From an uncultured Candidatus Saccharibacteria bacterium (GTDB lineage: Bacteria > Patescibacteriota > Minisyncoccia > UBA6257 > UBA9933): DNA of 32,701 bases. Below are positions 11,605-32,701 of the stretch, piece by piece. Location: contig CAYZYY010000001.1 in assembly GCA_964482855.1 (NCBI GenBank), positions 2,194 through 34,894 on the forward strand, given 5' to 3'. The position numbers and the translations under genes are program-made. How positions within the stretch are numbered: the first letter of the stretch is position 1; each line of letters opens with the position of its first letter. The notes under the pieces are model-generated. The model ran no database searches. It worked only from the letters and a program-made list of their open reading frames with translations, and was not told where the DNA came from.

Positions 11605-11619
11605 GATGTGTGAAAAATA

Positions 11620-12042: not shown

Positions 12043-12094
12043 AATATTTTATAAATTTACGAACCGAAGGTGAAGAAAATTTATCTAAAATTTT

Positions 12095-12207
12095 GAGCAC
12101 CCCGCCCTCTGTATCTATCAAATAATAACTGAATCATAAATTTTATCATTAATTTTCTAAAAGCGTTTACTTTTATTCAACAAACATGGAAGGCGGGGCT
12201 AAAGTTT
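12095..12207 (-). repeat. Copy 2 of the ~112-nt intergenic element
   Basis: GAGCACCCCGCCCTCTG (12095-12111), an AT-rich core sharing AATCATAAA, TTTTATC and ATTAATT blocks with copy 1, then GGAAGGCGGGGCTAAAGTTT (12188-12207). Confidence 0.7.
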
Positions 12208-12255
12208 AATAAATAAATTTCGTTCTCCTGGTGGCTCCGAAATTTATATTAAGCC

Positions 12256-13605: not shown

Positions 13606-13628
13606 AACAGGATTGGCTTTTAGCTTTT

Positions 13629-14216: not shown

Positions 14217-14762
14217 ATGGCAAAAGTCAATATAGAAGGAGTAAAAATTGTTATCGGGCTGGGAAACCCAGGTAAAAAATACGAAAAAACTTACCATAAT
14301 ACGGGGTTTTTGGCCGTTGATTTTTTAATTAAAAACATCTCAGTTTCTTCCGGCCTTTCAAAATTCCGGATTCCGAGCTCCAAAAATTTCGGCTATGTTA
14401 AAATCGGGAAGTTGGTCCTTATTAAACCCCTAACCTTTATGAATAATTCCGGCAAAGCCGTAAAAGAGGCCATAAGATATTTCTCGGCAAAACCGGAGGA
14501 AGTTTTAATTATTCACGACGATTCCGATATTAATTTGGGAAAATGCAAAGTTTCTTTTGGCCGCGGTTCAGCCGGGCACCAAGGAGTGGAATCAATTGTA
14601 AAATTTTTACATACCAAAAACTTCCAGAGACTGAGAGTTGGCGTCAAACAGACGGGGAAAAAGGCCGAGGAAATCGTTTTGAAAAAAATCGGCAAAAATG
14701 ACTTAAAAATCATTGAAAAAGTTTTTAAAACAATCAATATAAAAGACCATGACAAATGCTAA
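14217..14762 (+). CDS. pth: Peptidyl-tRNA hydrolase
   Basis: GLGNPGKKYEKTYHNTGF N-terminal signature, 181 aa. Its 3' end overlaps the next ORF by 14 nt. Confidence 0.92.
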   Translation: MAKVNIEGVKIVIGLGNPGKKYEKTYHNTGFLAVDFLIKNISVSSGLSKFRIPSSKNFGYVKIGKLVLIKPLTFMNNSGKAVKEAIRYFSAKPEEVLIIHDDSDINLGKCKVSFGRGSAGHQGVESIVKFLHTKNFQRLRVGVKQTGKKAEEIVLKKIGKNDLKIIEKVFKTINIKDHDKC

Positions 14763-16071
14763 AAAAATAATAATTTTCTTCGGAGACATCCTGATTTTAT
14801 ACGGCGCCTTGGTTATTACTTTAATTTTCCGCTACGGACCGGATTATTTTCAGGAATCATTTCATGCCCACATTAAACCATTTTCACTGATTTTTATAAT
14901 TTGGGCGCTGATTTTTTATCTGGCCGATTTGTATAAAGACAAATATTTAAGAATCGGTTTGGCAACGATTCAGGTTTTTGCCATAGCAATTGTCGTCAGC
15001 GCGGTTAATTCAATAATTCTTTTCTACCTTTTCCCTTCGTTTTTCAATTTGACGCCAAAAACTAATCTGGTAATTTTTGCCCTGATTTTCGGAATCCTGG
15101 ACCTTGGCTGGCGGTTTGTTTTGGTTAAAATTTTCATTTCCGGCGGCTGGAGAAACCGCCTGCTTTTTATCGGCCAATCGCCGATTATTGACGAAGTCAT
15201 CAATTATCTTAAAAACAATCCCCAAACCGGATACGACGTTGTTTTTCGAACTGAAAAATATTCGGGACAAAAAGCGGAAAATGACATTAATCAAATCATT
15301 GATAGAGAAAAAATCAATACCATTGTCATTCAGCCCCATCTTAAAAAAGACCAAAAAATCACCAAGTTTTTTTATCAGTTAATTTCTTCAAAAATCGCCA
15401 TTGTGGATTTGGTAACCTTTTACGAAACGATTTTTCAAAAACTACCCGTAAACGAGCTTGAAGAAAGCTGGTTTATTGAAAAAATAACCGGCTACCGGCG
15501 ACTATATGACATAACAAAAAGAACCATTGATTTTGGATTGGCTTTGTTTTGGGGTATTATTTTATCGCCTTTTATCGTAATTATCGCCGTTTTAACGAAA
15601 CTAAGCTCCAGGAAAGGACCCGTTATTTACAAACAAGAAAGAATCGGGGCTAATAATAAAATTTTTACCCTTTATAAATTCGGAACAATGCAGTTGGATA
15701 AAGGAAAACTTTGGACTGTGAAAAACGACAAAAGATTGACTTCTGTGGGCAAGTTTCTTAATTATACCCATTTAAACGAGATTCCCCAACTTTATAATAT
15801 TATAAAAGGCGATATTTCTTTTATCGGACCAAGAGCCGAACGCCGGGAACTGGCTGAGCTTTACCAACAACTCCCCTATTATGAAATCCGCCACATTATA
15901 AAACCCGGGCTGACCGGCTGGGCCCAGGTTAATTACAAGCCGAGCGCCTCGCTTGAAGAAGCCAGGGAAAAACTGCAATATGACATTTATTACATTAAAA
16001 ACCGTTCTTTGATTCTGGACTTGATGATTTTATTGAAAACAATCAGATATTTATTCTTATCCAATCATTGA
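14749..16071 (+). CDS. Polyprenyl-phosphate sugar-phosphotransferase (bacterial sugar transferase, WbaP/EpsL-like priming enzyme)
   Basis: N-terminal multi-TM region. The C-terminal Bac_transf pattern is KRTIDFGLALFWGIILSPF...GPVIYKQERIGANNKIFTLYKFGTM ... LNEIPQLYNIIKGDISFIGPRAE. Confidence 0.9.
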   Translation: MTNAKKIIIFFGDILILYGALVITLIFRYGPDYFQESFHAHIKPFSLIFIIWALIFYLADLYKDKYLRIGLATIQVFAIAIVVSAVNSIILFYLFPSFFNLTPKTNLVIFALIFGILDLGWRFVLVKIFISGGWRNRLLFIGQSPIIDEVINYLKNNPQTGYDVVFRTEKYSGQKAENDINQIIDREKINTIVIQPHLKKDQKITKFFYQLISSKIAIVDLVTFYETIFQKLPVNELEESWFIEKITGYRRLYDITKRTIDFGLALFWGIILSPFIVIIAVLTKLSSRKGPVIYKQERIGANNKIFTLYKFGTMQLDKGKLWTVKNDKRLTSVGKFLNYTHLNEIPQLYNIIKGDISFIGPRAERRELAELYQQLPYYEIRHIIKPGLTGWAQVNYKPSASLEEAREKLQYDIYYIKNRSLILDLMILLKTIRYLFLSNH

Positions 16072-16083
16072 ACAAGTTTTAAA

Positions 16084-17541
16084 ATGAGCAAACTTAGGGA
16101 TTTTTTTTTCCGAAACACGAACTCCCGGCAAACCATTGCCAAAAACGTTTTCTGGCTCGGTTCGGGACAGATATTCGGCCGTTTGACGAGGGCTCTTTTT
16201 ATCATTTACGCGGCCCGTCTTTTAGGGGCGGCCGAATATGGCGTATTTTCTTACGCCCTCGGCCTGGCCGGTTTTTTCACTATCTTTGCCGATATTGGAA
16301 TCAGCCAGATACTTACCAGAGAAGCCAGCCGAAAACCGGACAAGGCGTCTTTTTATTTTGCCACTTCGTTTTGGATTAAAACCGTTCTTCTCTTGGGAAC
16401 CACCGCTTTAGTTATTTTTATAGCCCCGCATTTTTCTAAAATCGAATCCGCGAAAATAATTATTCCTTTCGTCAGTTTGCTCGTTATTTTCGATAATCTA
16501 CGGGAATTTTCAAACGCGTTTTTCAGAGCCAAAGAAAAAATGGAGCTTGAGGCCTTCGTAAATATTCTTATGAACGTTTCCATTGCTTTAATCGGTTTTA
16601 TCGTTATTTATTTTTCGCAAACCGCCAGAGCAGTCACTTTTTCCTATATAGGAAGCGCCGGCGCCGGCTTACTTGCCGCGGTTTTCATTCTTCGGGAAGA
16701 ATTTCTAAAAGTTATTAAAGACTTTGACCGGAAGCTTATCCGTCCATTATTGAAATCCTCCTGGCCCATTGCTTTAAGCGGACTACTAGGCGCTTTTATG
16801 TTGAATATCGACATTATTATGCTCGGCTGGCTCCGCTCGGCCCAGGAAATCGGATTTTACTCAGCCGGACAAAAGATAATCCAGCTCCTCTATGTTTTAC
16901 CTTCAATCGTCGCCAGCGCCATTTTTCCGGCCCTTTCCAGAGCAGTCGGAAAAAAAGAACACCCAAAAGCGACTCTCATTATGGAAAGAGGGATGGCATC
17001 TATTTTTTTTCTTGCCATTCCTTTGGTTGTCGGCGGAATCGTTCTCGGCGAACCCATTATTGATTTCCTATACGGGAACGGGTATCTTCCCGGCGTGTTA
17101 AACTTTCAAATCCTGCTTTCCACCGTCCTTATAATTTTCCCGCAAGCGCTTCTGGTAAATCTGGCGCTGGTCTACAACAAACAAAAAAAATTAGCCGCTT
17201 ACGCGGCTTTTGCCTCATTGGGCAATATAGGATTTAACGCTCTTCTTATTCCCAAATTCGGGATTGTTGGAGCGGCAATAAGCACGGTAATCGTCCAAAC
17301 TCTTTATATCAGCCTTACGTGGAATATGATTAAGAGAATAAATACATTCAAAACCATCGCAAGCCTTAAGAAAATATTCACCGCTTCGGTCCTGATGGGA
17401 ATTTCAAGTTTCTTCTTCAATAAAATGGGAATGAACCTCATTATTAATATCGTCGTCTCGGTCGGAATTTACCTGGGAATACTCGTTGTTTTGAAAGAGA
17501 AAATTTTAGAGGAATTAAAATCAATCAAAAACTCTTACTGA
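16084..17541 (+). CDS. MOP-superfamily polysaccharide flippase (Wzx-like)
   Basis: 485 aa with about 12 or more hydrophobic segments and a typical N-terminus (IAKNVFWLGSGQIFGRLTRALFIIYAARLLG). It follows the priming transferase. Confidence 0.8.
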   Translation: MSKLRDFFFRNTNSRQTIAKNVFWLGSGQIFGRLTRALFIIYAARLLGAAEYGVFSYALGLAGFFTIFADIGISQILTREASRKPDKASFYFATSFWIKTVLLLGTTALVIFIAPHFSKIESAKIIIPFVSLLVIFDNLREFSNAFFRAKEKMELEAFVNILMNVSIALIGFIVIYFSQTARAVTFSYIGSAGAGLLAAVFILREEFLKVIKDFDRKLIRPLLKSSWPIALSGLLGAFMLNIDIIMLGWLRSAQEIGFYSAGQKIIQLLYVLPSIVASAIFPALSRAVGKKEHPKATLIMERGMASIFFLAIPLVVGGIVLGEPIIDFLYGNGYLPGVLNFQILLSTVLIIFPQALLVNLALVYNKQKKLAAYAAFASLGNIGFNALLIPKFGIVGAAISTVIVQTLYISLTWNMIKRINTFKTIASLKKIFTASVLMGISSFFFNKMGMNLIINIVVSVGIYLGILVVLKEKILEELKSIKNSY

Positions 17542-18968
17542 AAAAGTTTCTTTAGGCTAGCCCTAATGGCCTCGGCGATATAAATAGGATTTTTCAACCT
17601 CATTACGTTTTTGAAGATGAATCTCGGAGAAAAGAAAAATCTCAGATTGGCCCGATGAACGACCTTCTTAAGCTCTTTATCTGAAAGATGAGGATAACTG
17701 ATATGAGCCGAACGAGCCACGTCTATCGGCTTGTATTCGCCGCCAACAATCCAATTTTCCTTTTTGGCGATGTCGTAAAACTCAGTCCCGGGAAACGGAC
17801 TACAAACGTCAAACATCACCTGGTCGGGCTTGATTTCCCTAATTTTTTTCAGAGTCGCCGCGATTGTTTCTTTTGTTTCCAAGGGACTGGCTCCGAATAA
17901 GATATTTAACTTGACGAAAATTTTGTGTTTTTTCAAGAGTTTAATACCCTCAACCAATTTTTCAACGGTCACGTCTTTTTTGGTATAATCCAGTATTTTC
18001 TGAACAAACGACTCAACCCCGATATCCACATATCTGCAGCCAGCCTCGCTTAATACTTTGACAATTTCTTCATCCAAGTGGTCTACCCTGGATAAACATC
18101 CCCAGGCAAAATTCAGGTCCTTAATTCCGGCGCAAATTTCCAAAATCCTTTCTTTGCCCAAAACAAATTGGTCGTCAATAATACTGATTGACCTATACCC
18201 CTGACTCTTTAAAATTTTGAATTCTTCAATCACGTTAGCGGCGCTCCTTACTCGAATCGGGGGCTTAAGGCAACCGCTCTTTTTCTTAAATTCCAATTCT
18301 CGGGCAAAACTCAAAGCGCAGGGCACGCAATAAATACACCGATGAGGACACCCCCTTGCGGCAAGCATTGCCGTAAAAGGCTTAAGCCCGAGTTTGGGAT
18401 TATAAAACGCGTTCTTTTTTATCAGATGCCTGGCCGGAAAAGGAAGCTTGTCTAAATTCTCAATTATCGGCCTGCTCTCGTTGCGAATTATTTCTCCCTT
18501 TTTAAGCCAGGAAAGTCCTTTAATTCTTTCCGGCGATTTGCCTCCAGCTATCGCTTCCACTAATTCAGGAACAGTAAGGTCCGGCTCTCCCATAACGGCG
18601 TAAAAATTTTCTTTGACTAAAAACTTCTCCGGAAAAAAAGTCGGCGCCGGACCCAAAAAAATAAATTTTTTATTATCATCAAACCTTGACGCCTTCTTGG
18701 CAAAATCAATATCTTTTTCCATTGAAAGATTAACTGAGAAAATCAAATAAACGTCGCTTTTATCCTTGGCGACGAATTTCTTGAATTGGTCTTCCTTTTT
18801 AAAATCCAAAAAATCCTGATTGTAAACAACCTCGTGTTTTTTCTCCAAAAGAGCGAGGATAATCAAGACATAAACGTTTGGAAAAGGATAGTTTGTGTAA
18901 CTACAGCCGAAAATCCGCTCAAATCTTTTTTTATTTTCGCCAACTGGCTCAATGTAAGAAATTTTCAT
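17535..18968 (-). CDS. B12-binding-domain radical SAM enzyme (class B rSAM-like)
   Basis: The N-terminal ~150 aa is Rossmann-like, as in cobalamin-binding rSAMs, followed by ARGCPHRCIYCV (CxxxCxxC). 477 aa. The ATG at 18968 overlaps the upstream TGA (ATGA). Confidence 0.8.
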   Translation of the reverse strand: MKISYIEPVGENKKRFERIFGCSYTNYPFPNVYVLIILALLEKKHEVVYNQDFLDFKKEDQFKKFVAKDKSDVYLIFSVNLSMEKDIDFAKKASRFDDNKKFIFLGPAPTFFPEKFLVKENFYAVMGEPDLTVPELVEAIAGGKSPERIKGLSWLKKGEIIRNESRPIIENLDKLPFPARHLIKKNAFYNPKLGLKPFTAMLAARGCPHRCIYCVPCALSFARELEFKKKSGCLKPPIRVRSAANVIEEFKILKSQGYRSISIIDDQFVLGKERILEICAGIKDLNFAWGCLSRVDHLDEEIVKVLSEAGCRYVDIGVESFVQKILDYTKKDVTVEKLVEGIKLLKKHKIFVKLNILFGASPLETKETIAATLKKIREIKPDQVMFDVCSPFPGTEFYDIAKKENWIVGGEYKPIDVARSAHISYPHLSDKELKKVVHRANLRFFFSPRFIFKNVMRLKNPIYIAEAIRASLKKLFQ

Positions 18969-19951
18969 TTTTTTGATGCGTAAAATTTAATTATGCCGCT
19001 CATCCATGCTATTGCCCTTAAGGCGACGAAGGCCGGCATAAAAACCCCGATGAACATCTTTTTATTTTTAATAAAAAATTTGATTTCGTCAAACTGGAAA
19101 ACGTAAATCAGAGCCGCAAAAAATACCGCAAAAATTAGAAAATCAGGATTAGACAAAAAAGCAAGAAGTAAGGACGCAAAGAAAATCAAACCCAAAGGCA
19201 ATTCCAGAAAATAACGCATGCTGGAAACCTGATCGCCCGACCAGCGCTTCGGGTGTTTTTTAATCAGCATCATTCTGGCCAAAGCGCCGTGTGTCCGTTG
19301 CTTCATAAACCCCATAAAGCTTTCCGGCCAGAAATGAAGACAAAAAGTCTTTTGGGAAAGCGCCAGTTTATAGCCGGAAGCAATCATCCGATAACTCAAT
19401 TCGTTGTCCTGGCCGTACCTGAATTTCGGGTCAAACAAGCCGACCTCGTCCAAAACCGACTTTCGATAAATCGTGTTGGTGGTGCTTAAATGGTCGACGA
19501 ATTCGGATTTTATCTTCGACTGCCGGTATTCCACGTTGTAACCGGCCAAAGCAGCCCAGATATTTCCAGGGTTCAATGTCTTCGTCAATCCCGCGACGGC
19601 CGCTATTTTTTTTCCACCAGAGGCGGATTCAAAATAAGGCAACAGCTCAAAGAGCCAGTTTTCATCAAGCACCACGTCTCCATCAAGTACGGTTATGAAT
19701 TCCTCCTCTATCATTGCCAGCCCGGTATTCAAAGATTTCGCCACGCCCTGATTTTTCTGAGAAACGTATTTGACGTTTTTATGCCGGCTTGCAAATTCTT
19801 TTATGATTTTGGCCGAATCGTCCGTACTTTCGTCGTCAACCACGATTATTTCTTTGAATTCCACCTGTTGGGACAACAACGATTCCAGGGTTTTGGCGAT
19901 GGTCTTCTGTTTGTTGTAAACCGTTATTACGGCACTGATACTTTTATTCAT
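18965..19951 (-). CDS. Family 2 glycosyltransferase with C-terminal TM segments (synthase-like)
   Basis: ISAVITVYN...VVDDESTDDS, a DxD-like motif LDGDVV, GQDNEL, and a QxxRW-position motif reading KQRTHG. The last ~90 aa are hydrophobic. Confidence 0.85.
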   Translation of the reverse strand: MNKSISAVITVYNKQKTIAKTLESLLSQQVEFKEIIVVDDESTDDSAKIIKEFASRHKNVKYVSQKNQGVAKSLNTGLAMIEEEFITVLDGDVVLDENWLFELLPYFESASGGKKIAAVAGLTKTLNPGNIWAALAGYNVEYRQSKIKSEFVDHLSTTNTIYRKSVLDEVGLFDPKFRYGQDNELSYRMIASGYKLALSQKTFCLHFWPESFMGFMKQRTHGALARMMLIKKHPKRWSGDQVSSMRYFLELPLGLIFFASLLLAFLSNPDFLIFAVFFAALIYVFQFDEIKFFIKNKKMFIGVFMPAFVALRAIAWMSGIIKFYASKK

Positions 19952-19961
19952 AATTACTTGT

Positions 19962-19996
19962 AACGGCTCAACGCGTTGAGCCGTTGAATTTTTATA
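19962..19996 (+). terminator. 24-bp perfect palindrome followed by a T-run on the plus strand
   Basis: AACGGCTCAACG|CGTTGAGCCGTT (19962-19985), then GAATTTTTAT. On the minus (operon) strand it is followed by ACAAGTAATT and then the ATG, with no U-tract. Confidence 0.35.
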
Positions 19997-20962
19997 TTAG
20001 CATTCCGGCAACCGCAGCATCTCGCAGCCATCGCAGACTAAATTTGAATTTTTCCTGAATTTTCTGAATTTCTCGCCGTTCCAAACCTCTTCAAGCGATT
20101 GCGAAAGCAAATCACCCAGCTCGTACGTAGGCAAAGAACAGCAAGGCGTGGCTTTACCGGAATGAGTGATGTAAACATAATCGTACAGTTTCGGACAGGG
20201 CCTGTTTTTACGAAACAGCCGCCGGCCGAAAAGAATAAAAAGTCTTCTCTTAATGCCGGTAAAAGCGGAAAAGGGTAAGAAATCAACCCTGATTTTAAGC
20301 TTATCGGAAAACGTCATTATTTTTTCAGCTAATTCGAACTCTTCCTCCGCGCGAAAAGAGGGTAAATTTTTGTTGAATCTCCGGTCCAATCTGGCGATGT
20401 TTATCCTGTCCACGCCCAGTTCTTTGCCTTTCTTGATAAGTTCCAGTAATTCGCCTTCTTTGCCCTTATGCAAAGTAGGCTGAAGTATTACCAGCGGCTT
20501 TTTGTTTTGTCTTGAAGAAATAAGGTTTTGGACGACGCTTTTTATTGAATGACTATGATGACGGGGATCCTGGCTAGCTAATTCTTCAAAAGAGTCTACT
20601 GATAAACTAATGGAATCCAGTTCGTCATTCACTAATTTTTCAATCATTTCCTGGTTAAGCAGCGTCGCATTGGTCGTCAATTCCACGAGACATTTTTTTC
20701 GCTTAAAAATCCTGATAGCCTCGTGTATCCGCGAGTACAAAAGCGGCTCGCCCCAGCCAGTCAGGGTAATTTCAGAACCGGCCGGAATCTTTTCCGCTAT
20801 TCTTTTCAGGGTCGCAAAATCCATGTCCTCATATTCCAAATTAAAATCCTTTCTCGGACACATAAAACAATCCAGATTGCATTTGTTGGTTATCTCAATC
20901 TGGATTTTTGACGGCCTCTTCGGCACGCTAAAAAATAACCTTTTGAAGAATTTAAAAATCAT
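19997..20962 (-). CDS. Radical SAM enzyme with a C-terminal SPASM-type Cys-rich domain
   Basis: ITNKCNLDCFMCP (CxxxCxxC). The C-terminal auxiliary-cluster pattern is RPCPKLYDYVYITHSGKATPCCSLP ... CDGCEM. 321 aa. Confidence 0.85.
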   Translation of the reverse strand: MIFKFFKRLFFSVPKRPSKIQIEITNKCNLDCFMCPRKDFNLEYEDMDFATLKRIAEKIPAGSEITLTGWGEPLLYSRIHEAIRIFKRKKCLVELTTNATLLNQEMIEKLVNDELDSISLSVDSFEELASQDPRHHSHSIKSVVQNLISSRQNKKPLVILQPTLHKGKEGELLELIKKGKELGVDRINIARLDRRFNKNLPSFRAEEEFELAEKIMTFSDKLKIRVDFLPFSAFTGIKRRLFILFGRRLFRKNRPCPKLYDYVYITHSGKATPCCSLPTYELGDLLSQSLEEVWNGEKFRKFRKNSNLVCDGCEMLRLPEC

Positions 20963-21016
20963 ATTGTTTAATGTAATTAGGACGCCTTAGTAAAAAGGCA
21001 GATTTTATTAAGCTTA

Positions 21017-21844
21017 TCAATTTTGGACCTTTAATTTCTCATAAATCTTGGCGTCAACCAAAAATCTGTACCAAAATCCCTGCAAAAAATGGAATATTAA
21101 TCCTTCTTTGCCATCGAGAAAACCAAGGCGGAAAATATATCTGTACGTAAAATACGCGCAGGCTCTAAAAAACAACGGCGCTTTAAAGTATAAATTTCTT
21201 AGGAAGCGGCGCCGGCGCCTCTTATCCTTAAACTCTTTTTCATCGCCTTTGTTTTTTAATTGGCTTTCGGCTTCCAAAGTGGACCATTTATTATGCCTCT
21301 CTGTAAATCTGGCCAAAGAATCGGATATGATGTCTATGATGTCGGATTTTAGAATTTGAATCTTTCCGTCTACGATGAAATGTTGGTCGTAGGGCTTGTG
21401 TTCGCAATACCCCTTATTTTTGCGAAACAGAGGCGCGTGATAAGTGGGATAATGACCGCCATGCTTTATCCACTTGCCCATAAAAATAGTTTTACGGCTC
21501 ATTAGAAATCCATTAAAATTTTCATCAGCGCCCGTGGAAAATTTTCCGATTAACTCCTTTTTTAATTCCGGTGCGACCCTGTGATCGGCATCGAGATTGA
21601 AGACCCAATCGGTTTTTATAGGAAGATTTTCCAATGCCCAATTTCTTTGTTCAGAATAATTATCAAATTCGTGACATACCAACTCTACCTTGAATTTTTT
21701 GGCGATATCAACGGTTTTATCGCTGGAATAAGAATCAACCACGAAAATTTTCTCTACCCAACCGAAAACGCTTTCAATACAATCCTTAATGTTATTCTCT
21801 TCATTATATGTAAGAATTATTACGCTAATTGGAAGTTTATCCAT
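21017..21844 (-). CDS. Family 2 glycosyltransferase (soluble, WaaE/KdtX-like architecture)
   Basis: ISVIILTYNEENNI...VVDSYSSDKT, LDADH as the DxD equivalent, and a C-terminal GFLDGKEGLIFHFLQGFW helix region. Confidence 0.85.
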   Translation of the reverse strand: MDKLPISVIILTYNEENNIKDCIESVFGWVEKIFVVDSYSSDKTVDIAKKFKVELVCHEFDNYSEQRNWALENLPIKTDWVFNLDADHRVAPELKKELIGKFSTGADENFNGFLMSRKTIFMGKWIKHGGHYPTYHAPLFRKNKGYCEHKPYDQHFIVDGKIQILKSDIIDIISDSLARFTERHNKWSTLEAESQLKNKGDEKEFKDKRRRRRFLRNLYFKAPLFFRACAYFTYRYIFRLGFLDGKEGLIFHFLQGFWYRFLVDAKIYEKLKVQN

Positions 21845-21889
21845 AATCTTATAACATGAAACTTAATTAGACTGACCGCCTTTTGATTC

Positions 21890-23074: not shown

Positions 23075-23081
23075 ATTTGCG

Positions 23082-26431: not shown

Positions 26432-26436
26432 AATCG

Positions 26437-26661
26437 TTATTCTGCCTTAAAATATTCCAAGGAATCCGGACTTGATTCTTTTTTCACCCAACTTGATTTT
26501 TCCGGTTTTAAATTTACGTCTTTGGAAAAAAATCTAAACGGAATCGCGAATATTGCGAAAACCGTGAAATAAAAAATTATCATCACTATGGTGGTAATGA
26601 AATTTCCTATGAAAAATCCTATTTTCTCTAAATAAAGCCGGAGTGTTTTAAATGTCTTCAT
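26437..26661 (-). CDS. Small membrane protein resembling the C-terminal half of SxtJ-family proteins
   Basis: Start taken at the ATG at 26661 (MKTFKTL...), which avoids overlap with the upstream gene. One or two TM segments. IIFYFTVFAIFAIPFRFFSKDVNLKPE resembles, from memory, the SxtJ-type segment found next to carbamoyltransferases. Confidence 0.5.
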   Translation of the reverse strand: MKTFKTLRLYLEKIGFFIGNFITTIVMIIFYFTVFAIFAIPFRFFSKDVNLKPEKSSWVKKESSPDSLEYFKAE

Positions 26662-26662
26662 T

Positions 26663-26854
26663 TCAAAATAAAGCGTAAATAAACGGGCCGAGCGGCGAAC
26701 TTTGGGCAAAAATCATCAATAAGAAAAATACGACTAATACAAAAATCATTGGTATCAACCACCACATTTTATTTTTCCATAAAAAAGAAATGAGGCTTTT
26801 GATTGTTGAAAATCTTATTTTAACGCCGTTTAAAAAAGAAATGAAGAAATTCAT
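26663..26854 (-). CDS. DUF5989 / SxtK-like mini membrane protein
   Basis: 63 aa containing WKNKMWWLIPMIFVLVVFFLLMIFAQSSPLGPFIYALF. A single TM segment and a C-terminal PFIYxLF end are what I recall for DUF5989 proteins that accompany carbamoyltransferases. Confidence 0.65.
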   Translation of the reverse strand: MNFFISFLNGVKIRFSTIKSLISFLWKNKMWWLIPMIFVLVVFFLLMIFAQSSPLGPFIYALF

Positions 26855-26889
26855 AAATCTTTCATCGATTAAATGTTTTATTCTTACGA

Positions 26890-27684
26890 CTAAATGGCAA
26901 AAACCGGTATTCCTGAAAATTTGACGCGTTTATAACCGCAGCCGGTCAGAAAATCTGATATCATTTTTTCTGAAAAACCGCGTTTTGTCAAAGCCGCCTT
27001 ATGAAATTCCAGACAAATTGCTTTGACCCGGTGATTCTTAAAAAAATTTTCACTTCCCATTATAACGTCGTATTCCCAACCCTCAACGTCTATTTTTACC
27101 GCTTCGCACCCGTTGATGCCTTCTTTTTGCAATGCATCTTCCAGAGTTAAAACGGAAACCCTTTGTTTTGGCAAAGGATAAACGGTAGATTTTATAAAAG
27201 AGGAAGAACCGCTGTTTATTCCCGGTGAAATATAAAGATTGGCTTCTCCGGCTTCCCTGCCCAGGGCTATCGGCAAAACGGTTACGTTTTTGCAGTCGTT
27301 CAATTCAATGTTTCTGGATATTACCTTTTGCAAACGCTCTTGGGGTTCAATTGCGATTACTCTTCCGGCACCTCCCACCAATTTTGAAGCTACGATGGAA
27401 AAGTACCCTTCATTTGCCCCGATATCAACGAAAATATCGCCCTTAGATAAATATTTAAACAAAAAATTGATTGTTTCCGGTTCGTAAACTCCATTTAAAA
27501 TCAGGTCTTGGCCAAATAAAGAAACGGGGTCTATGAAAAATTTTCCAAATTTGGTTTTTTCCGTAACGCGTTTCAAAAAAATAATTTTTTTTAAAACTGA
27601 AGCCGCAAACGCGGGACGGACGGCCATGATAAATCTTGTCATTTTAGTTAATATTTTTTTACGGCTGTTTTTTTCGTTTTTCAT
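26890..27684 (-). CDS. FkbM-family SAM-dependent methyltransferase
   Basis: FVDIGANEGYFS motif, IAIEPQ, KIDVEGWEY. 264 aa. Confidence 0.85.
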   Translation of the reverse strand: MKNEKNSRKKILTKMTRFIMAVRPAFAASVLKKIIFLKRVTEKTKFGKFFIDPVSLFGQDLILNGVYEPETINFLFKYLSKGDIFVDIGANEGYFSIVASKLVGGAGRVIAIEPQERLQKVISRNIELNDCKNVTVLPIALGREAGEANLYISPGINSGSSSFIKSTVYPLPKQRVSVLTLEDALQKEGINGCEAVKIDVEGWEYDVIMGSENFFKNHRVKAICLEFHKAALTKRGFSEKMISDFLTGCGYKRVKFSGIPVFAI

Positions 27685-27686
27685 AA

Positions 27687-28757
27687 TTAAAAGTCATCAC
27701 TTAACAGATTATAGAGGGCGGTAGCGGCCAAATTATATCCTTTTTCGTTGAAATGCCCTTCCCTGGGATAATGACAATCGCCTTCTTTAATGATTAAGGG
27801 AACTAAATTAACATAATCTATGTCCTGTCTTATGGCTATCTCTTCTATCTTCTCGCCGAATTTCCTCTCCAGGTAATTATACTTTATATTTTTGGAAGGA
27901 ATTATCATTATCGCTATTTTTTTGCCCTCCATTAAGGATTTAGTTTGTTCGAGGAGTTTCTCAATAATAAAAAAGTTCTCCTCGTAATCGCCGATTGATT
28001 TAACCAGACCGAATTTTTCCAGGGTTGGGTAAAGGTTTTGCTTCAAGATGTTTTTCCCCAAAAGAACCGTTTTGAAATTAAAAAGCCACTTTATCTTACT
28101 GTAGAAACTTAAGTTTTTCACCCTGTAATCGGCGGCCCGGACATATTCCTTTTCGCCATCCTGCGGAACCGGAGAATTTTTCAAAACGATTTGTCCGTCT
28201 TCTTCTTTGAAATACGGCTTTAACCTGGGCCATTGGTATGGATGAGGAAGATTGACGTCTTCAATGTCATTACCGAGATAAATGTCGAAAACAACCGCAT
28301 CAGGATTATATTTCATGCCCATCTCCTTGAGAATTAAGAAATATTGCACGACATCGTATCCGGACGAACCAAAATTAAGAACTTCATAATCTCCCATTTT
28401 TTCAAGAAGCTTCGGTATCGTTTTTGCATTTTCCACCCCTATACCGAACGTAAAAGAATCCCCCAGAACAATGACCCTTTTCTTCCCGCTTTCGTTTTCA
28501 AAAGAATAATCTTTGTCGTCGCGAAAACCTTGAGCGTTTATTTTATAAACGGATTCAAATTCCGTCCTTTTTTCTACCCCCGAAGAGCCCGGTACCAACC
28601 TCCATCCTAAAAGAGGGTCGTATTGGTGAATTTTATCCGATTCGTTTATGAAAATTTCATTTTTATTTCCCTGGAGAACTTCTCCCAAGCGAAGCAAGCC
28701 CTCAAAAAGAACGAGGCCCAGTATCAAGCCGAAAAATATCAGAAGAATTTTTTTCAT
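27687..28757 (-). CDS. Membrane-anchored SGNH/GDSL-family hydrolase or acyltransferase
   Basis: N-terminal TM segment (ILLIFFGLILGLVLF), block I VIVLGDSFTFG, and a C-terminal D..H-type block (DCHYPREGHFNEKG). Confidence 0.75.
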   Translation of the reverse strand: MKKILLIFFGLILGLVLFEGLLRLGEVLQGNKNEIFINESDKIHQYDPLLGWRLVPGSSGVEKRTEFESVYKINAQGFRDDKDYSFENESGKKRVIVLGDSFTFGIGVENAKTIPKLLEKMGDYEVLNFGSSGYDVVQYFLILKEMGMKYNPDAVVFDIYLGNDIEDVNLPHPYQWPRLKPYFKEEDGQIVLKNSPVPQDGEKEYVRAADYRVKNLSFYSKIKWLFNFKTVLLGKNILKQNLYPTLEKFGLVKSIGDYEENFFIIEKLLEQTKSLMEGKKIAIMIIPSKNIKYNYLERKFGEKIEEIAIRQDIDYVNLVPLIIKEGDCHYPREGHFNEKGYNLAATALYNLLSDDF

Positions 28758-29938
28758 TTGTTTTTAGATAAAATACCTTCGTAAGCTTTTATTATTCTAT
28801 CCCCATAATCGTCCCATGTAAAACCGGATGAAACTTTTTTCTTCGCTAATTGCCCCATTTCCCGGCAAATGTCTCTGTTTTCGTAAAGATACGAAATTTT
28901 TCCTTTCAAAGATTCTGTGTCTCTTATTGGAATTATGAATCCCTGTTTTCCGTTCTCGATTATATCCGGCCCGCCCGTGTTTTCCGTCGCTATTACCGGC
29001 AAACCGCTGGCCATGGCTTGAGTCATTACCATTCCAAAACCGTCATGAATGGAAGGTAAAATAAAAACCGACCCCTGCGAATAATATTCATAAAGACTAT
29101 CTTGTTTTTTGTGGCCTAAAAATCTGATTCTTCCATCCCCCTTCCCGGGCTCTAACGCCGATATGACGCCGTATTTTTTAAAAAATGGTTCAATTTCCGG
29201 AGTTTCGGAACCTAAAAGTATTAGCTCTGAATTTGGCAAACCAAGCTCCGTAAACGCCCGGAGTAAATAATGGACGCCTTTTTGCAATGTCATTCCTCCG
29301 ACAAAAACAACGCGGAATACATCGTCTTTTTTTGAAATTTGCTTAAACTGAGACAGGTCAACGCCATAGGGAATGTGAATAAGTTTATCTTCCGGGATAC
29401 CCATTTCCAAAAACGTTCTTTTGGCGAATAAAGAAGGTATTGAAATGTAATCCGCTTCTTCAAATTCCAGCTCGGCCTTATCCACGTTTTTAGGATGATT
29501 TTTTTTCTTATTGATTCCATACTTGGCATATTCTTCCTCCACAATTTCCTTCTGAAACCTTGAATGGGCGCTGCCGTGCTCTATGACGCCGGCGGCTCCC
29601 AGCGATTTCGCTTTTCTCAGCGAATAAAGGGATTTTGTTGTCCAGCCTACGAATATATCCGTTTTATCGATTTTCCGACGGGCAAGTTTATCGAAGATAT
29701 CGTTTATTATCGGACTGGGGTCATATAAGCTCTTTAAAAATCCTGGAATTTTTTTCCACCCTCTTTGTAAAATTTCTTTTACGAGTATTGATTCAATCTT
29801 GCCCCTTGGAATTCCGTATTTAACCGTTTCGAATTTCGGATATGAAGTTATTAATTTATGCAAAAATCCTCTTTTTTCCAGCTGAAAAGCCAAATCAAAA
29901 GCGTGAAACCTGCCACCTACTTGTATTGTCACTTTCAT
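28754..29938 (-). CDS. GT4-family (group 1) glycosyltransferase
   Basis: C-terminal PSIHDGFGMVMTQAMASGLPVIATENTGGPDII (E-x7-E-type region). ATGA overlaps occur at both ends. Confidence 0.88.
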   Translation of the reverse strand: MKVTIQVGGRFHAFDLAFQLEKRGFLHKLITSYPKFETVKYGIPRGKIESILVKEILQRGWKKIPGFLKSLYDPSPIINDIFDKLARRKIDKTDIFVGWTTKSLYSLRKAKSLGAAGVIEHGSAHSRFQKEIVEEEYAKYGINKKKNHPKNVDKAELEFEEADYISIPSLFAKRTFLEMGIPEDKLIHIPYGVDLSQFKQISKKDDVFRVVFVGGMTLQKGVHYLLRAFTELGLPNSELILLGSETPEIEPFFKKYGVISALEPGKGDGRIRFLGHKKQDSLYEYYSQGSVFILPSIHDGFGMVMTQAMASGLPVIATENTGGPDIIENGKQGFIIPIRDTESLKGKISYLYENRDICREMGQLAKKKVSSGFTWDDYGDRIIKAYEGILSKNK

Positions 29939-30681
29939 AAATTTGGCGTTTTTTCGTATTTTTCTGTTTGCGCTTTTATGGAATCAATTTTCCCGTCCGA
30001 TTTTTTGGCGTAAATCATAATGGAAAAGGGCCCTCCGAAATTTACCAATTTATTGAATGAAACCGATTTTGACAAAATTTTATGCAACCCATAAACCAGT
30101 TCGTTCACCCTCTTAAGGGATCCTTTTTTAAAGAACGGGTATAAAACAATCGCCAAGATGGCAGTTATGCCATAAGGCAAAGAAGTCATTGTTCCCGCAA
30201 ATTGCCTTTCTTTTATTTCGTATCCCGCGTGGTCAAAAATAACCTTGACGGTATTGGGAGAATAAATATGATAATGCCTGTCATGAGAATCACTATATAA
30301 AGGAACGCAAAAAAGAAGCCCGCCGGCGGGAGAAAGAATTCTTCGAACTTCTTCCAGGACGTATTTATCTTCCCATACATGCTCCAAAACGTTGCTTATA
30401 ACGACGTACTTAAAATAATCGTCCGGGAACGGCGTTTTTTCCGTAATGGACCGCTGGACGAAATATCTTTCGCTTGCCAAGTTATTATTCGAAACGTCCA
30501 ACAGATAAGTTTCTTCGAATTTCTCATTCAAGGGATTAAAATCCCTGCCGTTGGAATCGCCGATAACCAATACCGGTCCGTCGTCAATACGCTCCATAAT
30601 AAACCTGTTTGGAATATAGCCCCCGGGAAAATCAGTGTTTGTTTTTTGGGGAAAAAGTTTTCTAAATAATTTTTTGAACAT
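29935..30681 (-). CDS. Class I methyltransferase-fold protein, paralogue A, with an atypical motif I
   Basis: Methyltransf_11-like core (YVVISNVLEHVWED...EVRRILSPAGGLLF). Motif I reads VLVIGDSNGRD instead of the usual xLDxGCGxG. A hydrophobic helix follows the core. Tandem paralogue of 30662-31405. Confidence 0.7.
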   Translation of the reverse strand: MFKKLFRKLFPQKTNTDFPGGYIPNRFIMERIDDGPVLVIGDSNGRDFNPLNEKFEETYLLDVSNNNLASERYFVQRSITEKTPFPDDYFKYVVISNVLEHVWEDKYVLEEVRRILSPAGGLLFCVPLYSDSHDRHYHIYSPNTVKVIFDHAGYEIKERQFAGTMTSLPYGITAILAIVLYPFFKKGSLKRVNELVYGLHKILSKSVSFNKLVNFGGPFSIMIYAKKSDGKIDSIKAQTEKYEKTPNL

Positions 30682-31405
30682 GGTTCTTCTTGTAATACTT
30701 TATTTGTCCGGATATCCAATCCTCCGGCTCGGATTTCTTCGCAACCACATAACAATAAGGATGAGGGACAAGTAAATTCAATTTCTCGAACTTGCCGACA
30801 CGGTTCTGCAATCTTAAAATCAATTGATTCACCTTTCTTAATGATTCATTTCCCCAAAAAGGGAGCATAAGAACTGCGCACAGGGCCACCGCCGTATTGG
30901 GTATTGCCGCACACAATCCATTTATTGTGAATGACTTTGGTTCGAACCCGACATACGACAGCAATCTCTTTAGAGACCCCGGAGTGTACATATGGCAATG
31001 AAGCCCGTTATCTATTGATTTTTTACTCAAATGAACGGCCAAAAACAGTTCGCCGTCATCGCTTAATATCCTTCTTATTTCCCTTAGCGCTTTAACGTCC
31101 TCCCAAATGTATTCCAAAACCGCAATCACGGCTACGTGTTTGAAAAAACCGTCCGGGTAAGGAGTTTTATCCGTTATGGATTGTTGAATAAAATTCTCCG
31201 ACACGTATCCATTATCGACTATGTCCAATACGTGCACGTCTTTGAATTTTTCTTTGTATAACGGGTAATCCCGATTATGGAATTCTCCAATCAATAAAAT
31301 AGGCGCTCCCTTTACTTTGTCCATAAAAAACCTGTTCGGCATAAAACCGCTTGGAAAATCTATTTTTGACTTCGGAAATAATTTTCTAAAGATTTTCTTG
31401 AACAT
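30662..31405 (-). CDS. Class I methyltransferase-fold protein, paralogue B, with a degenerate motif I
   Basis: Aligns along its full length with paralogue A (MFKKIFRKLFP, DFPSGFMPNRF, SITDKTPYPD, VLEYIWED, EIRRILS). Motif I reads ILLIGEFHNRD. TAG stop at 30662. The 3' end overlaps paralogue A by 20 nt. Confidence 0.7.
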   Translation of the reverse strand: MFKKIFRKLFPKSKIDFPSGFMPNRFFMDKVKGAPILLIGEFHNRDYPLYKEKFKDVHVLDIVDNGYVSENFIQQSITDKTPYPDGFFKHVAVIAVLEYIWEDVKALREIRRILSDDGELFLAVHLSKKSIDNGLHCHMYTPGSLKRLLSYVGFEPKSFTINGLCAAIPNTAVALCAVLMLPFWGNESLRKVNQLILRLQNRVGKFEKLNLLVPHPYCYVVAKKSEPEDWISGQIKYYKKNHVQKII

Positions 31406-31419
31406 TCTATTGAGAAAAA

Positions 31420-31986
31420 TTATTTGCGATTCATTTCATTAAAAACTCCCAGCATTTTTTCGGCCCGGGAAACAAACCCGCAATCGTATTCCTGAACCTT
31501 TTTATGCCCCGCTTCGGCGATTTTTTTCCTCTCGTCTTTATGTTCAAGATAATAATCGATTTTCTTTCGCAACTCATCAAATGAACCGAAAAACTCCGCT
31601 TCTTTTTCTTCTTCGAAAAACCCCATCGCTTCCTTTGTCCGCCAATGAAGCATAAAGGCCTTGCAGGCGGGCAATTCAAAAGTTCTTGAATCCAAAACGT
31701 CTTTGTCGTGCTCCCTTAAAAAACTCACTATAATTTTACCTGAATTTACGACCCTTGAAAAATCTTTCCCATAATATGCCTTATACGCCAGACTGCCGGT
31801 CTTTTTTAAACACTTGCATTCGCGACATTTACGCCATTGAGTTCCGAAGACTTTTACGTCGTATCCATTTTCGCACAGTTTTTCCAAATATTCGACACGC
31901 TTTTCCCCTTTCGCATAAGTGCCTATAAAAATAATGTCTGCTCCGAATCTCTCTATCTCGTCAGTGGTCGGTTTTATGGGGCGCAT
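31420..31986 (-). CDS. CgeB-like / Glyco_trans_1_2-type glycosyltransferase, C-terminal part of a gene split by an in-frame TAG
   Basis: DIIFIGTY...RTFELPACKAFMLH...FEEEKEAEFFGSFDELRKKIDYYLEHKDERKKIAEAGHKKV is typical of CgeB-family C-terminal domains. The ATG at 31986 directly follows the TAG at 31987-31989 in the same frame. Confidence 0.7.
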   Translation of the reverse strand: MRPIKPTTDEIERFGADIIFIGTYAKGEKRVEYLEKLCENGYDVKVFGTQWRKCRECKCLKKTGSLAYKAYYGKDFSRVVNSGKIIVSFLREHDKDVLDSRTFELPACKAFMLHWRTKEAMGFFEEEKEAEFFGSFDELRKKIDYYLEHKDERKKIAEAGHKKVQEYDCGFVSRAEKMLGVFNEMNRK

Positions 31987-32475
31987 CTAATCAATATCAA
32001 CGGCAGGCGGAAGAAAAACCGCTTTCTTGCCGCCCAACCTCATCAATTCGCCTATTTCTTCCGGCGTAGGAGTAAAAAAACAATCATAATACGGAACGGC
32101 TCTCAAAAAGTCTCGGCTTATATTCCTTGGAAAAAACACCGAGTCGCCGCTCCATGAAAATACCAATGCGCCTTGTTTTTTTATGGCGATTATCGTTTCC
32201 CTACTTATGTAAATCGGCTTGAAAAATAACACCATGTTCGGCTTGCCCGTTTTAACTTTTTCCAATACCGCGCCGTTTAACCCATTAGTATTATAATAAC
32301 GATGAGGCCTGAAAAACCAGTTTAAAATACGATTTACGGGATTAAGAGAATAATATTTTAAAATATCCAAAATCTCGGCCTTGTGGCCCATTTTTTCAAA
32401 ACCCTCCATATAAGAATTTGCCCTGTTCCGCGCCAGAGGAGCGTTTCCAACCGAGCTAATAATAAGAATCTTCAT
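31987..32475 (-). CDS. CgeB-like glycosyltransferase, N-terminal part (ends at the in-frame TAG)
   Basis: MKILIISS... Rossmann-like N-terminal domain ending VFLPPAVDID*. The track start at 32496 is TTG, so the ATG at 32475 is preferred. Confidence 0.65.
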   Translation of the reverse strand: MKILIISSVGNAPLARNRANSYMEGFEKMGHKAEILDILKYYSLNPVNRILNWFFRPHRYYNTNGLNGAVLEKVKTGKPNMVLFFKPIYISRETIIAIKKQGALVFSWSGDSVFFPRNISRDFLRAVPYYDCFFTPTPEEIGELMRLGGKKAVFLPPAVDID

Positions 32476-32484
32476 TTTATTAGC

Positions 32485-32563
32485 ATTATAAAACAAATTT
32501 TGGGGTTGTAAAATACGGCTAAACCGGCAAGTTATTGAAAAAAAACGGGACGCGTATTAGAAT
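32485..32563. promoter_or_regulatory. Divergent promoter region between the minus-strand glycan operon and the Gfo/Idh/MocA gene
   Basis: Minus strand: TTTACA (32512-32507), 16-nt spacer, TATAAT (32490-32485), then 9 nt to the ATG at 32475. Plus strand: TTGAAA (32535-32540), 17-nt spacer, TAGAAT (32558-32563), with ATGs at 32566 and 32572. Confidence 0.35.
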
Positions 32564-32565
32564 AA

Positions 32566-32701
32566 ATGAAAATGAAAAAAATCAAATTTACCATTATCGG
32601 ATGCGGGAAAATAGGCAATCGGCACGCCTCCAAACTTCAAGCCATTGAAGACGCCGAGCTTATCGGCGTTTGCGACATAATTCCGGAACGCGCCCAAAAA
32701 C
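32566..32701 (+). CDS. Gfo/Idh/MocA-family NAD(P)-dependent (sugar) oxidoreductase, 5' fragment cut by the window edge
   Basis: My translation is MKMKKIKFTIIGCGKIGNRHASKLQAIEDAELIGVCDIIPERAQK, a Rossmann GxGxxG segment with the family-typical N-terminus. It is not in the ORF track because it is truncated. The start could instead be 32572. Confidence 0.65.
   Translation, partial: MKMKKIKFTIIGCGKIGNRHASKLQAIEDAELIGVCDIIPERAQK

Follow-up and report, generated by a model that had tools for sequence, protein, structure and literature searches.

A gene-dense glycan locus occupies positions 14749–32701 of the analyzed DNA, a stretch of 32,701 nucleotides (nt) from contig CAYZYY010000001.1 that we call the window. 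The locus was delimited from the open reading frame (ORF) map and from Pfam and NCBIfam annotation. At a probability of roughly 0.72, we read it as a strain-variable locus for a lipid-linked surface heteroglycan, assembled by a Wzx-type route in a Paceibacteria (Candidatus Wolfebacteria-like) bacterium. As a whole, the locus belongs to a well-known type, the Wzx-type strain-variable surface-glycan locus. Its large minus-strand operon is, as far as its sequence tells, a mosaic, i.e. one shuffle of a shared module pool. Since each of its modules also occurs on other contigs, neither the operon nor the locus is one of a kind. The homologous contigs used for comparison are labeled L001, L002, L066–L071, L075–L077, and L079.

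The plus-strand part of the locus is attached to a housekeeping gene and consists of the following genes.

14217 to 14762, plus strand: pth, peptidyl-tRNA hydrolase (Pept_tRNA_hydro, E = 2.6e-46)
14749 to 16071, plus strand: priming polyprenyl-phosphate glycosyl-phosphotransferase (PGT) of the large polytopic WbaP/WcaJ type, 440 amino acids (aa) (Bac_transf, 195.8 bits)
16084 to 17541, plus strand: Wzx-type flippase of the multidrug/oligosaccharidyl-lipid/polysaccharide (MOP) superfamily, here flippase 1, 485 aa (Polysacc_synt, 133.5 bits)

The operon opens with pth, which overlaps the start of the PGT gene by 14 nt. The PGT passed the cutoff of TIGR03025 (309 bits vs. 295.55) and has five predicted transmembrane (TM) segments; its counterparts were 70% identical in L001, 65% in L069, and 54% in L066. 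Flippase 1 also matched Polysacc_synt_3 (110.3 bits) and MurJ (44.9 bits), contains at least 11 TM segments, and showed 78% identity to the protein at the equivalent site in L001. The order pth-PGT-Wzx was also found in L001 and L069, and pth is the conserved left anchor of the glycan site.

A genome scan with histidyl-tRNA synthetase (HisRS) placed the window in the Patescibacteria/Paceibacteria, with the best match to a Ca. Wolfebacteria metagenome-assembled genome (L001, 82% identity). The gene order pth-LepB-HisRS-HIT-S21-YqeY-YbeY-FtsA-FtsZ-NrdD-NrdG-SecD-SecF was colinear in relatives. In L001, the entire half from pth to SecF was colinear at 58–91% protein identity (most genes 72–87%), and much of this housekeeping order was kept across about 20 more distant Patescibacteria loci. 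Behind the shared anchor, the convergent operon of L001, the closest relative, is a different one, as expected for a variable island: it encodes a family 4 glycosyltransferase (GT4), UDP-GlcNAc 2-epimerase, an FnlA/CapE-like protein, epimerase/cupin proteins, a family 2 glycosyltransferase (GT2), and a cytidylyltransferase. In L069, a groundwater contig of the candidate phyla radiation (CPR; HisRS 75%), the same pth-PGT-Wzx site is present together with the radical S-adenosylmethionine (SAM) cassette described below. L002 carries PGT and Wzx genes about 7 kb from pth, with an LCP gene in between that adjoins the PGT gene. Otherwise, the glycan site was seen in the closest relatives only; PGT and Wzx were not found upstream of pth in the available DNA of 22 other Patescibacteria loci, several of which are short or truncated. 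A conserved position with differing content in close relatives was thus found for the left flank, and the glycan site is a replaceable surface-glycan island behind a conserved pth-PGT-Wzx anchor.

Base composition did not separate the two halves of the window, as a comparison proposed along with the original prediction might have done. The GC content was 0.397 vs. 0.404, per-gene GC3 likewise did not separate the halves, and the tetranucleotide correlation between them (r = 0.969) was close to that of within-half controls (0.97–0.98). Atypical composition is common in replaceable glycan islands, though not obligatory. A recent foreign origin of the glycan half was rejected on the grounds that its base composition is indistinguishable from that of the housekeeping half. 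Exchange of the island would then take place among compositionally similar relatives.

The plus-strand genes pth, PGT, and Wzx converge on 16 minus-strand ORFs, which run from 32475 down to 17535, and the 3′ ends of the two convergent operons overlap by 7 nt (17535–17541). Spacings within the minus-strand operon are −4, 45, 54, 45, 7, −1, 5, 1, 35, 2, −4, −4, −20, 14, and 0 nt; the junctions comprise three ATGA overlaps, one TAATG overlap, and one 20-nt overlap, and the largest gap is 54 nt. The operon consists of 15 genes, annotated as 16 ORFs since one gene is split. The remaining 17 genes of the locus are intact.

The promoter-proximal part of the minus-strand operon is a tailoring block with the following genes.

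31420 to 32475, minus strand: Glyco_trans_1_2-type glycosyltransferase split by an in-frame TAG (C-terminal half, 88.7 bits)
30662 to 31405, minus strand: class I SAM methyltransferase, copy b (Methyltransf_11, PF08241, 31.7 bits)
29935 to 30681, minus strand: class I SAM methyltransferase, copy a (Methyltransf_11, PF08241, 40.3 bits)
28754 to 29938, minus strand: glycosyltransferase GT4b (Glycos_transf_1, 104.1 bits)
27687 to 28757, minus strand: membrane-anchored SGNH/GDSL-like protein (GDS at residues 99–101, N-terminal TM segment at residues 4–22)
26890 to 27684, minus strand: FkbM-family methyltransferase (Methyltransf_21, 87 bits)
26663 to 26854, minus strand: DUF5989 mini membrane protein with one TM segment (PF19451, 56.8 bits vs. 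a cutoff of 27)
26437 to 26661, minus strand: 74-aa mini-protein with a single TM segment and an ATG at 26661, directly upstream of the carbamoyltransferase gene
24650 to 26431, minus strand: NodU/CmcH-family O-carbamoyltransferase (Carbam_trans_N, 261.7 bits; Carbam_trans_C, 238.7 bits)

A corresponding block was found in L079, with a nucleotide identity of 71–79% over about 6 kb. It comprises the divergent Gfo and DegT genes, an intact glycosyltransferase gene, and genes for GT4b (61% protein identity), the SGNH-like protein (75%), the FkbM-family methyltransferase (71%), DUF5989 (78%), the 74-aa protein, the carbamoyltransferase (86%), and GT4a. An extra methyltransferase gene is located between those for DUF5989 and the 74-aa protein, and flippase 2 is missing. 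Methyltransferase copy a, which copy b overlaps by 20 nt, was 51% identical to an L079 methyltransferase. The FkbM-family protein passed TIGR01444 (106.3 bits vs. a cutoff of 37.7). The carbamoyltransferase scored below the NodU equivalog (141 bits vs. a cutoff of 1000). For the SGNH-like protein, a possible block V was noted at about residues 333–335 (EGH), and the protein probably faces the outside of the cell. The 74-aa mini-protein had no Pfam or NCBIfam family match; its single database homologue (62% identity, 74 aa) is encoded in L079, also directly upstream of the carbamoyltransferase gene.

With its two tiny neighbors, a trio kept in L079, the carbamoyltransferase (about 600 aa) recalls SxtI-SxtJ-SxtK of saxitoxin synthesis, in which SxtJ and SxtK, small proteins whose role is not known, have been stated to act together with SxtI (PMC2679770). 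Unlike in that system, the small genes come first here (i.e. the order is reversed), and the predicted substrate is a glycan and not an alkaloid. The DUF5989 protein may correspond to SxtK and the 74-aa protein to SxtJ.

Downstream of the tailoring block, the operon continues with a membrane protein and a glycosyltransferase.

23082 to 24650, minus strand: flippase 2, a predicted divergent MOP-superfamily membrane protein, 522 aa, 14 helices (profile and structure)
21890 to 23074, minus strand: glycosyltransferase GT4a, HpsP/XYAG1-like (Glycos_transf_1, 146.7 bits)

Flippase 2 had no direct sequence match in Pfam or the PDB. Its family comprises 5005 homologues, and six of 49 sampled members matched Polysacc_synt (PF01943). 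Alignment of the family profile with the Wzx of the window by hhalign gave a probability of 94.4% (E = 8.5e-8, 383 columns). The predicted 14-helix fold (AlphaFold2 (AF2) model, mean predicted local distance difference test score (pLDDT) 93.7) resembles MurJ and WzxE, with TM-scores of 0.66–0.79: Foldseek matched it to MurJ 6nc6 (E = 5.7e-8, TM-score 0.66/0.73) and to WzxE (TMt 0.79). Judged by profile and model, the 522-aa protein is a second MOP flippase from a large separate family, with transport as its predicted function. The possibility that it represents the missing Wzy polymerase was ruled out by the MOP profile and the predicted fold. A metagenome scan with flippase 2 alone gave no match.

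GT4a scored 269.6 bits against HpsP, below the cutoff of 550, and was 76% identical to its homologue in L079. In L077, the trio flippase 2-GT4a-GT2b was found at 72%, 54%, and 49% identity, respectively, followed by an OTCase-like gene and by FnlABC-type genes as in L001; about 10 kb upstream of its flippase-2 homologue, this locus has a Wzy_C gene. We also noted that the gene at 13477–14403 of L077, located where the window has its NodU/CmcH module, encodes a protein with OTCace_N and OTCace domains (aspartate/ornithine-carbamoyltransferase fold). It may provide an alternative route to a carbamoylated sugar.

The most notable part of the locus is the promoter-distal end of the minus-strand operon, a radical SAM/membrane GT2 cassette of four genes.

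21017 to 21844, minus strand: GT2b, a soluble GT2 (Glycos_transf_2, 67.7 bits)
19997 to 20962, minus strand: radical SAM/SPASM enzyme (Radical_SAM, 68.8 bits; SPASM, 51.2 bits)
18965 to 19951, minus strand: GT2a, a GT2 with a C-terminal two-helix membrane anchor (Glycos_transf_2, 108.6 bits)
17535 to 18968, minus strand: class-B-type (B12-domain-like) radical SAM enzyme, AprD4/HpnJ-like, 477 aa, last gene of the operon (Radical_SAM, 64.8 bits)

The 477-aa enzyme carries a CxxxCxxC motif at residues 207–214 (C207/C211/C214), and more than 2000 homologues were found. Its closest sequence in the PDB was AprD4 (6fd2, E = 3.8e-22), the apramycin 1,2-diol dehydratase. AprD4 was also the top Foldseek match (E = 2.5e-25, TM-score 0.75/0.79) of the AF2 model (pLDDT 92.4). 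Other curated matches included BchE and PhpK, and the enzyme belongs to none of the HpnJ, BchE, PhpK, and AprD4 families. It may nevertheless work like AprD4, because the resemblance of the modeled fold is strong. Both have a class-B-type architecture, and the substrate of AprD4 is an aminoglycoside sugar. They differ in sequence (about 20% identity) and in setting, i.e. a lipid-linked glycan locus here vs. an aminoglycoside cluster there, and no AprD3-type reductive partner enzyme was identified.

A second comparison concerns lipids. HpnJ and calditol synthase (Cds) have been proposed to contract a lipid-bound hexose ring (PMC13459092). As in HpnI/HpnJ (hopanoid cyclitol ether) and Cds, a GT2 that would glycosylate a lipid is paired in the window with a class-B-type radical SAM enzyme that would remodel the sugar (PMC13459092), but the partner pathway here is that of PGT and Wzx. 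The hopanoid context (shc, hpnH, hpnG, hpnI, and hpnK) is absent from the window and the related loci, and no genes for glycerol dialkyl glycerol tetraethers (GDGT) were present.

The B12-binding domain PF02310 was detected neither in the 477-aa enzyme nor in its 20 closest homologues, but it was detected in most homologues of at most 55% identity; an N-terminal Rossmann-like domain was predicted with high confidence (AF2). AprD4 is reported not to bind cobalamin. We also detected, in three of the related cassettes, an additional radical SAM enzyme that is about 480 aa long and carries an evident B12-binding domain (L066, 6606–8054; L068, 12177–13595; L069, 4821–6269), which shares about 28–30% identity with the 477-aa enzyme. 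The window cassette contains no copy or remnant of it, the gap being only 54 nt. Possibly, the missing B12 domain and enzyme reflect a loss of cobalamin dependence in a lineage not expected to synthesize B12. In the housekeeping half, the genes for NrdD, an anaerobic ribonucleotide reductase, and for NrdG, the radical SAM enzyme that activates it (4871–7694, minus strand), lie between FtsZ and SecD, an arrangement kept in L001. They fit a life under strict anaerobiosis, a condition that oxygen-sensitive tailoring by radical SAM enzymes would likewise require.

GT2a is PgaC/IcaA-like (106 bits, below the cutoff), with TM segments at residues 248–266 and 299–317. The pairing with the radical SAM enzyme and this C-terminal hairpin were kept in L066, L068, L069, L070, and L076, the hairpin in five of six contexts. 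In the window as well as in L066 and L068, the GT2a stop codon and the radical SAM start codon overlap (ATGA in the window). The SPASM enzyme has a CxxxCxxC motif at residues 28–35 (C28/C32/C35) and six C-terminal cysteines; it showed weak similarity to BtrN, BlsE, and GDGT-MAS in the PDB and 65–75% identity to its homologues in L066 and L069. Homologues of GT2b at 46–50% identity were located both beside the radical SAM cassette (L066 and L069) and beside flippase-GT4 genes (L077 and L001).

In L066/L067, the cassette accompanies PGT and Wzx genes in an identical convergent layout, with identities of 73% for the radical SAM enzyme, 63% for GT2a, 65% for the SPASM enzyme, and 46% for GT2b; Wzx was 49% identical, and the PGT 54%. 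This contig is probably not from a CPR organism, because it also encodes an outer membrane protein beta-barrel. The cassette was likewise found in L068 (66%, 55%, 51%, and 39%, in the same order) and in L069. A separate observation in L069 was an opposite-strand gene for an rve-family transposase/integrase (7400–8188), together with small ORFs of no known identity, between the SPASM and GT2a genes. This insertion is direct evidence of mobile-DNA rearrangement at the glycan site.

More distant homologues of the 477-aa radical SAM enzyme (48–52% identity) occur in (i) L070, a Ca. Loosdrechtia contig from an anammox planctomycete, where a SPASM-radical SAM-GT2 trio (7492–13682) lies outside any polysaccharide locus; (ii) L071, from Methanoperedens, in a Wzz/Wzy_C/PMT_2/Wzx locus; (iii) L075, from Omnitrophota, in a PMT_2/GT9/carbamoyltransferase/GT4/PGT locus; and (iv) L076, from an Aenigmarchaeote, adjoining GT2, PMT_2 GT-C, and STT3/AglB genes. 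The flanking genes of the trio in L070 encode a class-II glutamine amidotransferase-like protein and a protein with an AIR-synthase fold (PurM/HypE/SelD-like), and a gene for a CDP-alcohol phosphatidyltransferase is located nearby; this context hints at a lipid head-group role of the trio in anammox bacteria. A metagenome scan with the radical SAM protein returned three loci only. In the incompletely covered literature, we found no description of a radical SAM/GT2 cassette, whether in connection with CPR, with polysaccharides, or with AprD4.

A carbohydrate substrate of the radical SAM enzymes is well supported by gene context and nearest relatives, and a membrane-bound, i.e. lipid-linked, substrate is a reasonable inference. 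It is possible, though we would put it forward only tentatively, that GT2a and the AprD4/HpnJ-like radical SAM enzyme, usually together with the SPASM enzyme and a second GT2, form an undescribed module. Such a module would act on a lipid-bound sugar through radical reactions that need no oxygen, either deoxygenating it or contracting its ring to give a carbasugar, and would deliver the unusual residue into surface glycans or glycolipids. It would be shared horizontally among anaerobes, namely Patescibacteria, Omnitrophota, anammox Planctomycetota, Methanoperedens, and Aenigmarchaeota.

Layout and gene content agreed for the most part with the original prediction, which had described two convergent glycan operons in an otherwise minimal-looking genome. 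The host genome is indeed a reduced CPR genome, and the ORF map and junction sequences reproduced the strands, gaps, and overlaps. The count of 16 minus-strand ORFs was also obtained, but the last two by coordinate are one gene split by a TAG. Where four or five glycosyltransferases had been predicted, Pfam and NCBIfam gave two GT2, two GT4, and one Glyco_trans_1_2. The three methyltransferases were identified as one FkbM and two Methyltransf_11 proteins. The predicted carbamoyltransferase contains both Carbam domains, and the two mini membrane proteins beside it are DUF5989 and a one-TM protein. The call of a second flippase-like protein was right, although it needed profile and structure evidence. 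Both of the different radical SAM enzymes matched Pfam Radical_SAM and contain CxxxCxxC, and one of them has a SPASM domain. That their substrates are plausibly carbohydrates is in line with AprD4 as the closest structure and with homologues in glycan loci, in six independent contexts. The view of the locus as exceptional was not supported, given that its modules recur in L066–L069, L077, and L079, some of them almost gene for gene.

Taken as a Wzx-type surface-glycan locus, the genes suggest the following route. PGT would put a hexose-1-phosphate on polyprenyl phosphate, and the cytoplasmic GT2, GT4, and GT-B enzymes would lengthen the chain. Hydroxyls would be O-methylated by the FkbM and class I methyltransferases and O-carbamoylated by the carbamoyltransferase. 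The membrane-anchored GT2a would make a lipid-bound sugar, which the translationally coupled radical SAM enzyme might remodel, either by an AprD4-like dehydration/deoxygenation or by an HpnJ/Cds-like rearrangement. The MOP flippases would move lipid-linked intermediates outward, the anchored SGNH protein would act on the outer face, and polymerization and/or ligation to an acceptor would be carried out by genes outside the window. The original prediction had proposed a lipid-linked glycan that is methylated, carbamoylated, and possibly acylated. The lipid-linked part and the methyl and carbamoyl tailoring are matched by the genes present; the acylation rests on a sub-threshold SGNH match.

Known Wzx/Wzy islands for O-antigen, capsule, or exopolysaccharide share with the locus a PGT, a Wzx, multiple GT2 and GT4 glycosyltransferases, and tailoring with methyl and carbamoyl groups, as well as a tight operon at a conserved chromosomal position whose nearest relative has other content. 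Unlike those islands, the window lacks Wzy, Wzz, ligase, and export genes and contains two MOP flippases along with two radical SAM enzymes; the host is a CPR bacterium, and its anchor genes are predicted to be co-transcribed with pth. The oddities of the locus (no polymerase, heavy tailoring) are explained by truncation of the window and by module shuffling as seen elsewhere.

Several points weigh against the Wzx-type heteroglycan interpretation or against parts of it. Wzy, Wzz or another polysaccharide co-polymerase (PCP), WaaL, LCP, Wza, and oligosaccharyltransferase were not found in 14749–32701 by Pfam, NCBIfam, and a TM scan; the polytopic proteins of the locus are PGT, the two MOP proteins, and GT2a only. 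Two flippases with one PGT are unusual, and two separate products could be made instead of one. The radical SAM enzymes fall far short of all curated family cutoffs: the best NCBIfam match of the 477-aa enzyme, HpnJ (TIGR03471), reached 197.4 bits against a cutoff of 577.6, and the AprD4 family (NF033070) 98.6 bits against a cutoff of 500. The putative reaction and substrate suggested here derive only from nearest relatives and gene context. The SGNH-like protein matched Lipase_GDSL_2 at 29.2 bits, below the cutoff of 32.9, and in block I alone. As the first operon gene contains an in-frame TAG, one transferase may be inactive or made in two pieces.

At the right edge of the window, one further gene begins.

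32572 to 32701, plus strand: start of a divergent Gfo/Idh/MocA sugar oxidoreductase gene (GFO_IDH_MocA, 28 bits over 43 aa), running off the window

Over these first 43 residues, identity to the beginning of a 349-aa gene product was 91% in L079, where the Gfo gene is followed by a DegT/PseC-like aminotransferase gene. By this synteny, an oxidoreductase-aminotransferase pair for an amino sugar very probably lies just beyond the window edge. The Gfo/Idh/MocA gene runs off the edge, and the glycan locus therefore continues past 32701. The lack of a polymerase or ligase is probably a window-edge effect, because the locus continues and because L077 has a Wzy_C and L002 an LCP gene. The original prediction had likewise recognized no polymerase, chain-length regulator, or ligase, and none was found in the window by Pfam or NCBIfam. 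The undefined assembly route that it derived from this is for the most part a consequence of truncation.

A rather doubtful alternative is a short, unpolymerized lipid-linked oligosaccharide that is moved en bloc to a protein (S-layer or pilin) by an oligosaccharyltransferase encoded elsewhere. Neither the window nor the surrounding 10 kb in L066, L069, and L079 contains a gene for Wzy, Wzz, or a ligase; in L076 the radical SAM-GT2 pair is located beside STT3/AglB and a PMT_2 GT-C enzyme; and terminal methylation and carbamoylation suit a capped oligosaccharide. Gene absence is, however, weak evidence in a truncated window. Polymerization is moreover indicated by related loci, i.e. by the Wzy_C upstream of the flippase-2 homologue in L077 and by Wzz and Wzy_C in L071 of Methanoperedens, and the LCP gene adjoining the PGT gene in L002 points to a wall-linked polymer.

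Two products instead of one appear unlikely. The cassette would then make a separate polyprenyl-phosphate-linked or glycolipid head group (a remodeled or carbocyclic sugar) with its own MOP flippase, used outside the cell and independent of the PGT chain. The presence of two MOP proteins in the window would therefore be explained, but flippase 2 travels with GT4a and GT2b (L077) and not with the cassette. HpnJ is the best curated family match of the radical SAM enzyme, yet its score is far under the cutoff, and the window contains no hopanoid or GDGT genes. In L071, L075, and L076, the family occurs together with PMT_2 GT-C enzymes, which use sugars linked to polyprenyl phosphate, whereas no GT-C/PMT_2 gene was found in the window. 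A glycolipid product would also agree with the C-terminal TM hairpin of the partner GT2 (five of six contexts) and with the anammox trio of L070, which lies apart from polysaccharide loci and near a CDP-alcohol phosphatidyltransferase gene. In L066, L067, and L069, however, the convergent layout again links the cassette to PGT and Wzx, which fits a role in the PGT-primed chain.

Decay of the operon, with the in-frame TAG as the mark of a locus no longer making its original glycan, is more unlikely still. The split glycosyltransferase gene consists of two ORFs in one frame, 31987–32475 (162 aa) and 31420–31986 (188 aa), separated by the TAG at 31987–31989 (GAT TAG ATG). Both halves are colinear with a single 347-aa protein of L068, in which Ile stands opposite the TAG, and the homologue in L079 is also intact (355 aa). 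Recoding of TAG or TGA was rejected for this gene: TAG ends five other genes and TGA eight, at positions matching homologues. As an ordinary stop, the TAG could indicate decay, but all other 17 genes are intact and tightly coupled. The ATG that directly follows the TAG sits with it at the GT-B interdomain boundary, so that two functional halves are conceivable. The split could thus stem from a nonsense mutation or from an error in sequencing or assembly, or the enzyme could consist of two pieces. Loss of one transferase typically changes a glycan and does not abolish it.

The cassette as a cluster for a peptide made by the ribosome and then modified post-translationally (RiPP; glycocin-like or sactipeptide-like) that merely neighbors the glycan locus was rejected as highly improbable: GT2b has the SunS peptide S-glycosyltransferase as its best, weak curated match (45 bits vs. 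a cutoff of 350), and RiPP pathways often include SPASM and B12-type radical SAM enzymes, but there is no precursor gene and no room for one (cassette gaps of 45–54 nt or overlaps, no small ORF called in the window or in L066–L069), no protease or ABC exporter, a consistent linkage of the cassette to PGT, Wzx, GT4, PMT_2, and STT3 genes, and a sugar dehydratase, AprD4, as the nearest solved structure.

For the surface-glycan locus, a possible start of transcription was seen between the divergent Gfo/Idh/MocA gene and the minus-strand operon.

32485 to 32512, minus strand: sigma-70-like promoter match, best in the region (TTTACA-16-TATAAT, 11/12 matches), just upstream of the first minus-strand ORF

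Site totals in the promoter and terminator scans were not above shuffled expectation, and for this top promoter-like sequence, which is suggestive, the position alone is of interest. No RNA families were detected in the window by Rfam.

We also noted three features outside the glycan locus. A gene at 73–1401 (minus strand), on the border of the housekeeping block, encodes a 442-aa protein that has a single TM segment at its N-terminus; it had no Pfam or NCBIfam match even at E = 10. The 341-aa protein encoded at 1531–2556 (minus strand) combines an N-terminal Sigma70 region 4 with HARE-HTH (RNA polymerase delta subunit fold), an unusual pairing for a transcription factor, and a 61%-identical homologue follows SecF in another locus (L023). 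A 90-aa ORF at 11247–11519 (plus strand) is antisense to the gene for ribosomal protein S21 (11242–11466). It showed no family match and is most likely a chance ORF.

Beside pth, this Paceibacteria lineage thus maintains a replaceable glycan island in which PGT and Wzx form a fixed anchor and the tailoring modules can be swapped. O-antigen and capsule serotype loci follow the same logic, and the finding as such comes as no surprise. As CPR bacteria live attached to host cells, their surface glycans, about which almost nothing is known chemically, are likely to shape host recognition and phage attack. The part that stands out is the cross-phylum radical SAM/membrane GT2 cassette, which is widespread in anaerobes and tied to glycan genes in bacteria and archaea, and whose radical SAM enzyme has as its nearest characterized relatives enzymes that perform chemically unusual sugar reactions. 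If its product were identified, the cassette would represent a new class of sugar modification in envelope biology and might provide a lipid or glycan biomarker for anoxic settings.

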